Below are positions 14,063 through 18,986 of a stretch of 64,000 nucleotides of DNA, one piece after another. Below the pieces are notes generated by a model, which saw only the letters and a program-made list of their open reading frames with translations, was not told the origin of the DNA and searched no databases. The DNA is from Escherichia coli (GTDB taxonomy: Bacteria; Pseudomonadota; Gammaproteobacteria; Enterobacterales; Enterobacteriaceae): the NCBI RefSeq assembly GCF_030013205.1, contig NZ_CP122648.1. One strand, written 5' to 3'. A program made the position numbers and the translations under genes. The stretch's first letter is position 1. Each line of letters opens with the position of its first letter.

Positions 14063-15130
14063 ATGGATAAGAGTAAGCGCCATCTGGCGTGGTGGGTTGT
14101 CGGGTTACTGGCGGTGGCTGCCGTCGTGGCGTGGTGGCTGTTGCGCCCGGCAGGTGTGCCGGAAGGCTTTGCCGTCAGTAATGGGCGCATTGAAGCGACG
14201 GAAGTGGATATCGCCAGCAAAATTGCCGGGCGTATCGATACCATTCTGGTGAAAGAAGGCCAGTTTGTTCGCGAAGGCGAAGTGCTGGCGAAGATGGATA
14301 CTCGCGTGTTGCAGGAGCAGCGACTGGAAGCCATCGCGCAAATCAAAGAAGCGCAAAGCGCCGTTGCTGCTGCGCAGGCTTTGCTGGAGCAACGACAAAG
14401 CGAAACTCGAGCCGCACAGTCGCTGGTCAATCAACGCCAGGCCGAACTGGACTCCGTGGCTAAACGTCATACGCGTTCCCGCTCGCTTGCCCAACGTGGA
14501 GCTATTTCTGCGCAACAGTTGGATGACGACCGCGCCGCCGCTGAGAGCGCCCGAGCTGCGCTGGAATCAGCAAAAGCCCAGGTTTCTGCTTCTAAAGCCG
14601 CTATAGAGGCGGCACGCACCAATATCATTCAGGCGCAAACTCGCGTCGAAGCCGCGCAAGCCACTGAACGGCGCATTGCCGCAGATATCGATGACAGCGA
14701 ACTGAAAGCCCCGCGTGACGGACGCGTGCAGTATCGGGTTGCCGAGCCTGGCGAAGTGCTGGCGGCAGGCGGTCGGGTGCTGAATATGGTCGATCTCAGC
14801 GACGTCTATATGACCTTCTTCCTGCCAACCGAACAGGCGGGCACGCTGAAACTGGGCGGTGAAGCCCGACTGATCCTCGATGCCGCGCCAGATCTGCGTA
14901 TTCCTGCAACCATCAGTTTTGTCGCCAGCGTCGCCCAGTTCACGCCAAAAACCGTCGAAACCAGCGATGAACGGCTGAAACTAATGTTCCGCGTCAAAGC
15001 GCGTATCCCACCGGAATTACTCCAGCAGCATCTGGAATATGTCAAAACCGGTTTGCCGGGCATAGCGTGGGTGCGGGTGAATGAAGAACTTCCGTGGCCT
15101 GACGACCTGGTGGTGAGGTTGCCGCAATGA
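14063..15130 (+). CDS. yhiI: HlyD-family membrane fusion protein
   Basis: 355-aa ORF with N-terminal TM segment and long coiled-coil; stop overlaps the rbbA start (ATGA). Confidence 0.9.
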
Positions 15131-17862
15131 CGTATCTGGAACTGGTTCCCGTCCCGCCTGTCGCGCAACTGGCGGGCGTGAGCCAGCATTATGGAAAAAC
15201 CGTTGCGCTGAACAATATCACTCTCGATATTCCGGCCCGCTGCATGGTCGGGCTGATTGGCCCGGACGGCGTCGGGAAGTCGAACTTGTTGTCGTTGATT
15301 TCCGGTGCCCGCGTCATTGAGCAGGGCAATGTGATGGTGCTGGGCGGCGATATGCGCGACCCGAAGCATCGCCGTGACGTTTGCCCGCGCATCGCCTGGA
15401 TGCCGCAGGGGCTGGGCAAAAATCTCTACCACACCTTGTCGGTGTATGAAAACGTCGATTTTTTCGCCCGCCTGTTCGGTCACGACAAAGCGGAGCGGGA
15501 AGTGCGAATCAATGAGCTGCTGACCAGCACCGGGTTAGCACCGTTTCGCGATCGTCCGGCAGGGAAACTCTCCGGCGGGATGAAGCAAAAACTTGGGCTG
15601 TGCTGTGCGTTAATCCACGACCCGGAACTGTTGATTCTTGATGAGCCAACAACGGGGGGTGACCCGCTCTCCCGCGCCCAGTTCTGGGATCTGATCGACA
15701 GTATTCGCCAGCGGCAGAGCAATATGAGCGTGCTGGTCGCCACCGCCTATATGGAAGAGGCCGAACGCTTCGACTGGCTGGTAGCGATGAATGCCGGAGA
15801 AGTGCTGGCAACCGGCAGCGCCGAAGAGCTGCGGCAGCAAACGCAAAGCGCCACGCTGGAAGAGGCGTTTATAAATCTGTTACCGCAAGCGCAACGCCAG
15901 GCGCATCAGGCGGTAGTGATCCCACCATATCAACCGGAAAACGCAGAGATTGCCATCGAAGCGCGCGATCTGACCATGCGTTTTGGTTCCTTCGTTGCCG
16001 TTGATCACGTCAATTTCCGCATTCCACGCGGGGAGATTTTTGGTTTTCTTGGTTCGAACGGCTGCGGTAAATCCACCACCATGAAAATGCTTACCGGATT
16101 GCTGCCCGCCAGCGAAGGTGAGGCGTGGCTGTTCGGGCAACCGGTTGATCCAAAAGATATCGATACTCGCCGTCGGGTGGGCTATATGTCGCAGGCGTTT
16201 TCGCTCTATAACGAACTCACCGTGCGGCAAAACCTGGAGTTACATGCCCGTTTGTTTCACATCCCGGAAGCGGAAATTCCCGCGCGAGTGGCTGAAATGA
16301 GCGAGCGTTTTAAGCTCAACGACGTTGAAGATGTTCTGCCGGAGTCATTACCGCTCGGCATTCGCCAGCGGCTTTCGCTGGCGGTGGCGGTGATTCATCG
16401 CCCGGAGATGTTAATCCTCGATGAGCCTACTTCTGGTGTCGATCCGGTGGCGAGGGATATGTTCTGGCAGTTGATGGTCGATCTCTCGCGTCAGGACAAA
16501 GTGACTATCTTCATCTCCACCCACTTTATGAACGAAGCGGAACGTTGCGACCGTATCTCACTGATGCACGCCGGAAAAGTGCTCGCCAGCGGTACACCGC
16601 AGGAACTGGTTGAGAAACGCGGAGCCGCAAGTCTGGAAGAGGCATTTATCGCCTATTTGCAGGAAGCGGCAGGGCAGAGCAACGAAGCCGAAGCGCCGCC
16701 CGTGATACACGACACCACCCACGCGCCGCGTCAGGGATTTAGCCTGCGCCGTCTGTTTAGCTACAGCCGCCGCGAAGCGCTGGAACTGCGACGCGATCCG
16801 GTACGTTCGACGCTGGCGCTGATGGGAACGGTGATCCTGATGCTGATAATGGGTTACGGCATCAGTATGGATGTGGAAAACCTGCGCTTTGCGGTGCTTG
16901 ACCGCGACCAGACCGTCAGTAGCCAGGCGTGGACGCTCAATCTCTCCGGTTCCCGTTACTTTATCGAACAGCCGCCGCTCACCAGTTATGACGAGCTTGA
17001 TCGTCGAATGCGTGCGGGCGATATCACGGTGGCGATTGAGATCCCTCCCAATTTCGGGCGCGATATCGCGCGTGGTACACCCGTGGAACTCGGTGTCTGG
17101 ATCGATGGTGCGATGCCGAGCCGCGCCGAAACGGTAAAAGGCTACGTGCAGGCTATGCACCAGAGCTGGTTACAGGATGTAGCGAGCCGACAATCCACGC
17201 CCGCCAGCCAAAACGGGCTGATGAATATTGAGACGCGCTATCGCTATAACCCGGATGTAAAAAGCCTGCCAGCGATTGTTCCGGCGGTGATCCCGCTTCT
17301 GCTGATGATGATCCCGTCAATGCTAAGCGCTCTTAGCGTGGTGCGGGAAAAAGAGCTAGGGTCGATTATCAACCTTTACGTGACACCCACCACCCGTAGC
17401 GAATTTTTGCTTGGCAAACAGCTGCCGTACATCGCGCTGGGGATGCTGAACTTTTTCCTGCTCTGCGGCCTGTCGGTGTTTGTGTTTGGCGTACCGCATA
17501 AAGGTAGTTTCCTGACGCTCACCCTGGCGGCGCTGCTGTATATCATCATTGCCACCGGAATGGGGCTGCTGATCTCCACCTTTATGAAAAGCCAGATTGC
17601 CGCCATTTTCGGTACGGCGATTATCACGTTGATCCCGGCGACACAGTTTTCCGGGATGATCGATCCGGTAGCTTCGCTGGAAGGTCCAGGACGCTGGATC
17701 GGCGAGGTTTACCCGACCAGTCATTTTCTGACTATCGCCCGCGGGACGTTCTCGAAGGCGCTGGATCTGACTGATTTGTGGCAACTTTTTATCCCGCTGC
17801 TGATAGCCATCCCGCTGGTGATGGGCTTAAGCATCCTGCTGCTGAAAAAACAGGAGGGATGA
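15127..17862 (+). CDS. rbbA: ribosome-associated ATPase, tandem ABC ATPase domains fused to an ABC-2 permease domain
   Basis: 911-aa ORF with two Walker A motifs ([17 protein letters not shown]) and two LSGG signatures, C-terminal hydrophobic domain. Confidence 0.92.
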
Positions 17863-18986
17863 TGCGCCATTTACGCAATATTTTTAATCTGGGTATCAAA
17901 GAGTTGCGCAGTCTGCTCGGTGATAAAGCGATGCTGACGTTGATTGTTTTCTCGTTTACGGTATCGGTGTATTCGTCAGCGACCGTCACGCCAGGATCGT
18001 TGAACCTCGCGCCGATCGCCATAGCCGATATGGATCAATCGCAGTTGTCGAACCGGATCGTTAACAGCTTCTATCGCCCGTGGTTTTTGCCACCGGAGAT
18101 GATCACCGCCGATGAGATGGATGCCGGACTGGACGCCGGACGCTATACCTTCGCGATAAATATTCCGCCTAATTTTCAGCGTGATGTCCTCGCCGGACGC
18201 CAGCCGGATATTCAGGTGAACGTCGATGCCACGCGCATGAGCCAGGCATTCACTGGCAACGGTTATATCCAGAATATTATCAACGGTGAAGTGAACAGCT
18301 TTGTCGCGCGCTACCGTGATAATAGCGAACCGTTGGTATCGCTGGAAACCCGGATGCGCTTTAACCCGAACCTCGATCCCGCGTGGTTTGGCGGGGTGAT
18401 GGCGATCATCAACAACATTACCATGCTGGCGATTGTGCTGACCGGATCGGCGCTGATCCGCGAGCGCGAACACGGCACGGTGGAACACTTACTGGTGATG
18501 CCGATAACGCCGTTTGAGATCATGATGGCGAAGGTCTGGTCGATGGGGTTGGTGGTGCTGGTGGTGTCGGGATTATCGCTGGTACTGATGGTGAAAGGCG
18601 TGCTGGGCGTACCGATTGAAGGCTCGATCCCGCTGTTTATGCTGGGCGTGGCGCTCAGTCTGTTTGCCACTACGTCGATCGGCATTTTTATGGGGACGAT
18701 AGCGCGTTCAATGCCGCAACTGGGGCTGCTGGTGATTCTGGTGCTGCTACCGCTGCAAATGCTTTCCGGTGGATCCACGCCGCGCGAAAGTATGCCGCAG
18801 ACGGTGCAGGACATTATGCTGACCATGCCGACGACACACTTTGTCAGCCTCGCGCAGGCCATTCTCTACCGTGGTGCCGGATTCGAAATCGTCTGGCCGC
18901 AGTTCCTGACGCTGATGGCAATTGGCGGCGCGTTTTTCACCATCGCACTGCTGAGATTCAGGAAGACAATTGGGACAATGGCGTAA
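17859..18986 (+). CDS. yhhJ: ABC-2 family permease
   Basis: Start chosen at the ATGATG overlapping the rbbA stop (MMRHLRNIF...), giving about 375 aa; the ORF-track start at 17778 lies inside rbbA. Confidence 0.88.

Follow-up and report, generated by a model that had tools for sequence, protein, structure and literature searches.

The yhiI-rbbA-yhhJ locus of Escherichia coli raises the question of whether overlapping stop and start codons couple the translation of three genes whose products may act as one membrane machine. Within the 64,000-nucleotide stretch of DNA that was analysed (the window), yhiI (14063-15130; all features located here by coordinates are on the + strand) encodes a 355-residue membrane-fusion (periplasmic adaptor) protein, rbbA (15127-17862) encodes a 911-residue NBD1-NBD2-ABC-2 transmembrane domain fusion, and yhhJ (17862-18986) encodes a 374-residue ABC-2 permease (MRHL...) presumed to pair with the transmembrane domain of RbbA. 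An earlier note had claimed that the first pair of genes overlaps as ATGA and the second within ATGATG, and a reading of the open reading frames bore out both statements. At the first junction, the four nucleotides ATGA (15127-15130) are common to the yhiI stop codon (TGA, 15128-15130) and the rbbA start codon (ATG, 15127-15129). At the second, the sequence ATGATG (17859-17864) contains the rbbA stop codon (TGA, 17860-17862), and the annotated yhhJ ATG at 17862 produces a 1-nt overlap (TGATG, 17860-17864). The coordinates of all three genes agree with the RefSeq annotation of a 100%-identical strain and with the K-12 genes b3487, b3486 and b3485, and the K-12 junction sequences are identical to those in the window. 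Both overlaps are thus part of the existing annotation.

Two other start codons were considered for yhhJ. An ATG in the same frame at 17859 would overlap rbbA by 4 nt and could be an alternative start, though it lies merely 1 nt past a consensus Shine-Dalgarno sequence (AGGAGG, 17852-17857). A GTG at 17778, which heads the mechanically derived open reading frame, was rejected because homologues start beside the rbbA stop codon.

The domain content of the three proteins agrees with the earlier description of a membrane-fusion protein, a double-ATPase-permease fusion and an ABC-2 permease. YhiI matched the HlyD-family membrane-fusion domains HlyD_3, HlyD_D23 and Biotin_lipoyl_2 in Pfam and has a single N-terminal hydrophobic helix (residues 8-26). 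Its AlphaFold model (pLDDT 89.9) comprises a lipoyl domain and a beta-barrel besides a transmembrane helix and an alpha-hairpin of 2 x ~62 residues; the top structural matches of this model were EmrA of EmrAB-TolC (8zar, E 4e-22) and MacA of MacAB-TolC, and YhiI thus models as an EmrA/MacA-like periplasmic adaptor. RbbA contains two ABC_tran domains and an ABC2_membrane_3 domain, and it scored 1590.4 bits against the NCBIfam RbbA equivalog NF033858 (cut-off 1050), with residues 12-910 covered. Its residues 1-513 resemble YbhF (about 40% identity) and residues 539-875 resemble YbhS (32%), six hydrophobic segments are located between residues 559 and 905, and the ATPase domains are closest to ABCA in the PDB and to DrrA/NodI in NCBIfam. 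YhhJ likewise matched ABC2_membrane_3 and shares 24% identity with YbhR and 28% with the RbbA transmembrane domain. When solved structures were searched with the RbbA and YhhJ sequences, generic ABC ATPase and ABCG/ABCA matches were returned and none of this family.

Two other classes of protein were tried and rejected. The transmembrane domains matched ABC2_membrane_3, ABC2_membrane and ABC2_membrane_2 only, and being all of the ABC2_membrane type rather than of the FtsX fold they do not fit a MacB-type transporter. A soluble ABCF/EF-3-type ribosome-binding double-ATPase was set aside on account of the six-helix ABC-2 domain of RbbA, its ABCA/DrrA/NodI matches and its membrane localisation, RbbA-mCherry being distributed in the membrane (PMC6788730).

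An adaptor gene that precedes a double-ATPase and a pair of ABC-2 permease domains is also the layout of ybhGFSR, which shares both gene order and domain set with yhiI-rbbA-yhhJ (YhiI and YbhG are 33% identical) and whose product is considered an MFP-dependent exporter, probably working through TolC (PMC7190983). The ybhGFSR junctions are also tight (-8, -8 and +10 nt, compared with -4 and -1 here). Unlike ybhGFSR, rbbA fuses the ATPase and the first permease in one 911-aa chain, and whereas the ybhGFSR-type operon is headed by a TetR gene (cecR/ybiH), in E. coli the genes upstream of yhiI are DUF4049 genes and yhiY, with no TetR-family regulator at the head of the operon. Like MacAB-TolC, the proposed assembly would combine an outer-membrane channel with an inner-membrane ABC transporter and a membrane-anchored adaptor whose alpha-hairpin is long; however, MacB is a homodimer with an FtsX-type fold and a large periplasmic domain, whereas RbbA and YhhJ belong to the ABC-2 family and would pair as a heterodimer in which a single chain carries the two ATPase domains. 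EmrA resembles YhiI in its N-terminal transmembrane anchor, long hairpin, lipoyl and beta-barrel domains, but it serves an MFS transporter rather than an ABC transporter and its sequence identity to YhiI is only about 18%.

Homologous loci number more than 595; related loci were compared using a sample of 80 from Proteobacteria, Verrucomicrobia and Planctomycetes, 79 of which retain the upstream flank; all counts from this sample ignore shared ancestry, and a rule was used to assign start codons in the relatives. Between phyla RbbA keeps 65-70% identity, and the order adaptor-rbbA-yhhJ was kept in every one of the 79 loci with an upstream flank. In 25 of 71 relatives the immediately upstream gene, in the same orientation, was of the OEP/TolC family (outer-membrane factor), and in about half of these 25 the junction between the OEP gene and the adaptor gene was itself -4 or -1. 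A TetR_N gene was found upstream in just 3/71. The E. coli locus itself is without an outer-membrane factor gene. The conserved order, the OEP genes of relatives and the likeness of the YhiI model to EmrA and MacA favour the proposal of the earlier note that the products form a tripartite efflux-like assembly. Here, YhiI would be the adaptor, RbbA would provide one half of the transmembrane part together with the two ATPase domains, and YhhJ would provide the other half, while in E. coli the outer-membrane channel would be encoded elsewhere. The sequences show the identities of the genes, the overlaps and their conservation, and the nucleotide bias at the junctions; formation of the complex, its use of TolC and any substrate are inferred, as are co-transcription and coupling.

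Taken alone, the overlaps matter little, being present in the reference annotation and having the commonest spacing among E. coli operon genes. Among the 37 co-directional adjacent annotated pairs in the window, seven overlap by 4 or 1 nt (yhiI-rbbA, rbbA-yhhJ, nikAB, nikBC, nikCD, nikDE and selAB), and longer overlaps occur at ftsEX (8 nt) and rsmD-yhhL (11 nt). Across the E. coli genome, 707 of 2,987 unidirectional pairs are spaced at -8 to +6 nt, and ATGA is the configuration seen most often (PMC10666635). The nikABCDE operon is, like yhiI-rbbA-yhhJ, an ABC transporter operon, and it has four successive -1/-4 overlaps, although it encodes an importer in which ATPase and permease are separate subunits; it shows the pattern to be routine for ABC operons. 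The arrangement at yhiI-rbbA-yhhJ is therefore a common and ordinary one.

More information is held by the nucleotides at each junction and by their persistence in relatives. At the first junction, a Shine-Dalgarno-like GAGGT (15115-15119) is located in the 3' end of yhiI, 7 nt ahead of the rbbA ATG, and 42 of 79 related loci have a Shine-Dalgarno-like 4-mer at the equivalent position, compared with a background of 18% within yhiI (2.9-fold). The stop codon of the yhiI homologue lies with a start codon at -4 or -1 in 66/79 loci, and it reads ATGA in 55 of the 79 and GTGA in 16. ATGA was kept despite variation in the final codon of the homologue (CAA, AAA, GAA, CCA or CGA), and where the last codon specifies glutamine (40 cases) it was CAA, which makes ATGA, 30 times, whereas codon usage predicts 9.6.

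At the second junction, AGGAGG falls within the final rbbA codons (Gln-Glu-Gly), such that the C-terminal K-Q-E of RbbA, encoded as CAGGAG, doubles as a Shine-Dalgarno site. Homologous rbbA tails contain CAGG in 79/80 cases and CAGGAG in 46/80, and the tail glutamate was encoded by GAG in 48 of 57 (31.8 expected). A Shine-Dalgarno-like 4-mer was present at this junction in 62 of 80 relatives, against 11% background in the gene body (7-fold). The yhhJ start codon lies between -4 and +3 nt from the rbbA stop codon in 73/80 relatives; literal overlap of the two genes was found in 18 of the 80, with most of the others spaced at +1 to +3 nt. From these sequences, both junctions look selected despite the commonness of such overlaps.

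RNA folding was evaluated from -99 to +30 at each junction. Neither junction RNA proved more stable than its shuffled counterparts (z +1.07 and -0.17), so there is no sign of masked internal start sites. On coupling as such, the folding was judged uninformative either way.

The best explanation of the locus, and one we consider probable, is that it is a known operon encoding an envelope-spanning ABC-2 exporter paralogous to YbhGFSR, the subunits of which are coupled by termination-reinitiation. According to this model, the three genes would be transcribed jointly from a promoter upstream of yhiY. Since every downstream gene starts within the stop codon of the gene before it, a ribosome ending yhiI would most likely restart on rbbA at ATGA, and a ribosome ending rbbA would most likely restart on yhhJ at TGATG; both restarts would be aided by the Shine-Dalgarno motifs that the upstream gene carries in its final codons. 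Such coupling would tie together the output of the three subunits, favour assembly where they are made and keep a long mRNA covered by ribosomes.

The prediction of coupling fits both the comparative signal at the two junctions and published tests of similar pairs. The coupled E. coli pairs hyfHI, astDB and ydbH-ynbE as well as menDH have co-directional ATGA overlaps (Huber et al, 2019, 2023) and, like yhiI-rbbA-yhhJ, a Shine-Dalgarno motif in the upstream gene, and their products are in many cases subunits of a single complex. The present locus has comparable features, namely 4-nt and 1-nt overlaps together with a Shine-Dalgarno-like motif inside each upstream gene at its 3' end; however, coupling of the Huber pairs was shown with reporters, whereas for yhiI-rbbA and rbbA-yhhJ it is predicted from sequence. 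In reporter tests of native E. coli -4 pairs, four of five were coupled and bioBF was uncoupled despite its overlap (PMC6728339). Published measurements place the loss of coupling beyond about 20 nt, and gene pairs at short distance are 4.5-fold enriched for subunits of complexes. For the three genes themselves, the literature search returned operon listings, transcriptome mentions, a localisation control and a retracted paper, and found no experiment on their translation. The earlier note had called the coupling "tight", and this is the least secure word of the claim because the perfect AGGAGG of yhhJ could also support independent initiation. A further point against coupling is that a hexameric adaptor would not require 1:1 synthesis with RbbA. 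The junction pair is nevertheless clean and deeply conserved (-4, and -1 with a consensus Shine-Dalgarno sequence), and the two may serve as test cases for termination-reinitiation.

Alternatively, the overlaps could be products of neutral codon drift or genome compaction, with rbbA and yhhJ mainly initiated independently at their own Shine-Dalgarno sites. The frequency of this type of overlap (7/37 pairs in the window and 707/2,987 in E. coli) favours this view, but the persistence of ATGA in 55/79 relatives although the final codon varies, and the use of CAA at three times the codon-usage prediction, count against it. The consensus AGGAGG before yhhJ, the overlapping yet uncoupled bioBF pair and RNA folds that give no masking of start sites are all compatible with independent initiation. 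Literal overlap of rbbA and yhhJ in only 18/80 relatives also points this way, yet the -4 to +3 nt spacing in 73/80 stays within the measured range of reinitiation, and we regard the neutral explanation as rather unlikely. By contrast, the overlaps could be a selected device, in which synonymous selection across several phyla on ATGA and on the K-Q-E Shine-Dalgarno site would make an ancient OMF-adaptor-ABC-2 exporter assemble co-translationally and in order, the label "ribosome ATPase" being misattributed; this we put forward only tentatively.

That label underlies a different reading, in which RbbA is primarily a ribosome-associated translation ATPase, its place beside yhiI and yhhJ is a coincidence and no shared complex can be read from the overlaps. 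In its favour are the gene name, older biochemistry describing a ribosome-bound ATPase and the RefSeq name, which is still "ribosome-associated ATPase/putative transporter"; PMC3083400, which summarises the older work, is marked retracted. A membrane-distributed protein with a six-helix ABC-2 domain and ATPase domains of the ABCA, DrrA and NodI exporter types, flanked in 79/79 loci by adaptor and permease genes and often by an outer-membrane factor gene, makes this reading highly improbable. The modest value of the overlaps is here, in supporting the view that RbbA forms a single membrane machine with YhiI and YhhJ instead of acting alone on the ribosome. Internal promoters in yhiI or rbbA could also give separate transcripts, leaving the downstream genes independent of upstream translation. 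A scan for promoters and terminators over 13600-19300, which was consensus-based and can miss weak or non-sigma-70 promoters, found four promoter-like sites against 3.7 expected from shuffled sequence, and this is chance level. The sole internal site on the + strand (18253-18280) falls downstream of the yhhJ start codon, and the same scan found no consensus promoter ahead of rbbA or yhhJ and no terminator at the junctions. The scan thus speaks weakly against internal promoters. The overlapping codons leave zero intergenic space and the three genes appear as a single unit in published tables, and we consider separate transcripts improbable.

Joint transcription as proposed in the coupling model would begin at a sigma-70 promoter-like sequence upstream of the operon (TAGACA-16-TACTAT, 13702-13729). 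Its hexamers and spacing are identical to those of the constitutive RpoD promoter reported for yhiI-rbbA-yhhJ (PMC3946193), and the three genes are tabulated as one operon (PMC3946193; PMC9962212). Between this promoter and yhiI lies the annotated 37-codon small open reading frame yhiY (13887-14000), which is identical to that of K-12 and is possibly a regulatory upstream open reading frame. Rho-dependent termination has been reported for the yhiI leader (bioRxiv 2020.07.18.207399), and for this reason the polarity test suggested in the earlier note, the effect of upstream nonsense mutations, is confounded. If the overlaps were indeed a selected device, then, taken with the yhiY upstream open reading frame and the Rho-dependent termination reported for the leader, they would leave the whole pump's expression dependent on one initiation decision at the 5' end. 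Translation of yhiY has been detected via initiation-complex ribosome profiling (bioRxiv 511675); it is among the listed upstream open reading frames that have an RNA 3' end <200 nt downstream, and in rhoR66S a yhiI fusion was >2-fold up (bioRxiv 2020.07.18.207399).

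The yhiI (14063-15130), rbbA (15127-17862) and yhhJ (17862-18986) genes, delimited on the plus strand by mechanical ORF calling and direct reading, have the coordinates of the RefSeq annotation of an identical strain and of K-12 b3487, b3486 and b3485. Direct reading, in agreement with RefSeq and K-12 annotation, bore out both stop/start overlaps described in the earlier note. At the adaptor/ATPase junction (junction 1) the yhiI stop TGA (15128-15130, plus strand) and the rbbA start ATG (15127-15129) form ATGA, and at the ATPase/permease junction (junction 2) the rbbA stop TGA (17860-17862) lies inside ATGATG (17859-17864, plus strand). 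Because the coordinates match and K-12 and the window share identical junction sequences, the observation is correct and is already known from reference annotation. The two ATGs of the hexamer (17859 and 17862) share the yhhJ frame; starting at 17862, as annotated, yhhJ overlaps rbbA by 1 nt, and starting at 17859 it would do so by 4 nt. The ATG at 17859 lies just 1 nt past an AGGAGG (17852-17857), so that 17862 is the more plausible start. Swine and wild-boar O139:H1 strains carry the 5.5-kb region with 100% identity, and 5,413 of the 5,426 complete E. coli genomes contain at least 80% of it.

The overlap pattern as such is a common, ordinary arrangement. The window's annotation contains 37 co-directional adjacent pairs, of which seven share 4 or 1 nt (yhiI-rbbA, rbbA-yhhJ, nikAB, nikBC, nikCD, nikDE and selAB), and longer overlaps occur in ftsEX (8 nt) and rsmD-yhhL (11 nt). 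The nikABCDE operon (28310-33225, minus strand) carries a 1-nt or 4-nt stop/start overlap at four successive junctions; the overlapping selAB and ftsEX pairs lie at ~55354-58592 and ~44136-45855. Genome-wide in E. coli, 707 of the 2,987 unidirectional pairs have spacings from -8 to +6 nt, and ATGA is the configuration seen most often (Huber et al., PMC10666635).

The junctions were compared across 80 loci whose RbbA relatives are 65-98% identical, drawn from enterobacteria, Pseudomonas, alpha-, beta- and deltaproteobacteria, Verrucomicrobia and Planctomycetes. A permease gene lies downstream of the rbbA homologue in all 80, and an adaptor gene upstream in each of the 79 whose upstream flank is present. 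With the relatives' starts assigned by rule, the four bases at the adaptor stop read ATGA in 55 of 79 loci and GTGA in a further 16, an rbbA-frame start at -4 or -1, open to the conserved N-terminus, occurs in 66 of 79, and the permease start falls within -4 to +3 nt of the rbbA stop in 73 of 80, literally overlapping it in only 18. The junction 1 overlap persists despite a varied last adaptor residue (final codons CAA, AAA, GAA, CCA and CGA), and where this residue is Gln it is encoded by CAA, which makes the ATG, in 30 of 40 cases versus 9.6 expected from the rbbA codon usage of each locus itself. RbbA tails follow the pattern [K/R]-K-Q-[E/A]-x-stop, with CAGG in 79 of 80 and CAGGAG in 46 of 80, and the tail Glu codon is GAG in 48 of 57 (31.8 expected). 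Shine-Dalgarno-like 4-mers precede junction 1 in 42/79 loci (background 18%) and junction 2 in 62/80 (background 11%). Although all of these junction counts are uncorrected for shared ancestry, the direction of the signal is clear: tight junctions and internal ribosome-binding sites are kept at the nucleotide level.

YhiI (HlyD-family domains, a single N-terminal hydrophobic helix) was modelled on 75 homologues (pLDDT 89.9) as a TM helix, a lipoyl domain, a hairpin of two ~62-residue helices and a beta-barrel, best matched by EmrA in EmrAB-TolC and MacA in MacAB-TolC. RbbA combines two ABC ATPase domains with an ABC-2 transmembrane domain and exceeds the NCBIfam RbbA equivalog cut-off, and YhhJ is an ABC-2 permease. 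These matches agree with the membrane-fusion protein, double-ATPase-permease fusion and ABC-2 permease named earlier, and the gene identities and shared complex of the three proteins are near certain. The proposed tripartite efflux-like assembly is supported by related loci, 25 of 71 of which have an outer-membrane efflux protein gene (Pfam OEP) directly upstream on the same strand; about half of these OEP-adaptor junctions are also -4/-1. A linked channel gene is absent from the E. coli locus, and we therefore infer that the E. coli pump uses TolC. Among the solved structures searched, none from a YhiI-RbbA-YhhJ-type transporter family was found.

The operon is paralogous to ybhGFSR: YbhG is 33% identical to YhiI, YbhF about 40% to RbbA residues 1-513, YbhS 32% to RbbA residues 539-875 and YbhR 24% to YhhJ. 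Whereas ybhF and ybhS are separate genes with an 8-nt overlap, RbbA corresponds to both joined end-to-end (window 15127-17862 compared with K-12 ybhF/ybhS, L082 6120-8982). Since its halves match YbhF and YbhS, RbbA is an ATPase fused to the first permease, and the fusion looks to be the final stage of such an overlap. Comparison adds detail (ATGA selection, a Shine-Dalgarno sequence spelled by the RbbA tail codons, channel genes linked to the operon in relatives, the ybhFS fusion relationship) and leaves the category, ordinary and already annotated, unchanged.

A promoter scan placed the promoter-like site TAGACA-16-TACTAT at 13702-13729 (plus strand), which is the constitutive sigma-70 promoter that Shimada et al. 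list for yhiI-rbbA-yhhJ (PMC3946193); the consensus scan found none ahead of rbbA or yhhJ, its match count being at chance level. With the genes probably on a single transcript and their codons overlapping, termination-reinitiation would be expected. This mechanism was shown for four of five native E. coli ATGA pairs (PMC6728339), and fails at spacings beyond about 20 nt in published tests. In a published analysis, subunits of the same complex were 4.5-fold overrepresented among short-distance pairs. Coupling would bring RbbA and YhhJ, which are expected to pair 1:1 as a heterodimer, to equal levels, and would hold YhiI at or above them. Weak points are the bioBF pair, overlapping yet uncoupled (PMC6728339), and, for junction 2, the consensus AGGAGG ahead of yhhJ, which may permit independent initiation. 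A further weak point is that RNA at both junctions folds no more stably than shuffles and so gives no sign of masked internal start sites. Coupling is likely at junction 1, and tight coupling is less certain at junction 2. The coupling reading is supported as a prediction, and we consider it fairly probable that yhiI-rbbA-yhhJ is an ABC-2 export pump operon whose genes are both co-transcribed and translationally coupled.

Between the operon promoter and yhiI lies the 37-codon ORF yhiY (13887-14000, plus strand), identical to that of K-12 and ending 62 nt ahead of the yhiI start. Its translation has been detected (bioRxiv 511675), a yhiI leader fusion is >2-fold up in a rho mutant, and yhiY-yhiI is one of the upstream ORFs listed as having an RNA 3' end <200 nt downstream (Adams et al., bioRxiv 2020.07.18.207399); this makes yhiY a possible regulatory upstream ORF of the entire pump operon. 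Given the rho effect, upstream nonsense mutations would also give Rho-dependent transcriptional polarity, and polarity is readable as translational coupling only with mRNA measured or Rho inhibited. Past the yhhJ stop, a 7-bp inverted repeat (ATGCGTA ... TACGCAT, 19000-19026, plus strand) is followed by a nine-T run, with a REP-like GGCCGGATAAGGCGTTTA 3' of it (19060-19077, plus strand); a terminator scan made no call at 19000-19077.

RbbA takes its name from ribosome-bound ATPase. A transporter role is favoured because RbbA-mCherry spreads through the membrane (PMC6788730), its ATPase domains look like those of exporters (ABCA in the PDB, DrrA/NodI in NCBIfam) and the conserved gene neighbourhood is that of a pump; the overlaps are small added evidence in the same direction. 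One ATP site is degenerate in all 81 aligned homologues: the H-loop of the first ATPase domain (NBD1) reads TAYM, Tyr replacing His (15736-15753, codons 204-209), and the NBD2 signature reads LPLG[I/Q], not LSGGQ (16345-16362, codons 407-412). Canonical motifs are present in the NBD2 H-loop (STH) and the NBD1 signature (LSGGM); taken with the altered ones, they suggest one catalytic and one regulatory nucleotide site. In this strain, codon 178 (15658-15660) encodes Gly for Val in the NBD1 D-loop (TGVDP to TGGDP); all 80 other homologues, K-12 and E. albertii included, keep the Val, and the change could alter function.

Upstream of the operon lie two intact DUF4049 genes, yhiL-like and yhiJ-like (10224-13697, plus strand); K-12 yhiL is an annotated pseudogene. 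Directly 3' of yhhJ is a decayed patch (19177-27701) containing a truncated ISAs1 transposase, a frameshifted Imm57 immunity gene, IS2, Rhs fragments, IS1 and a frameshifted Rhs core gene. Two IS-bounded sites, at ~48437-49785 and 53597-55325, are presumably breaks in K-12 gene order; beyond livJ come IS1397 and then ysaA/yiaJ, and a TRAP large-permease gene is cut off by IS1, with selB directly next.
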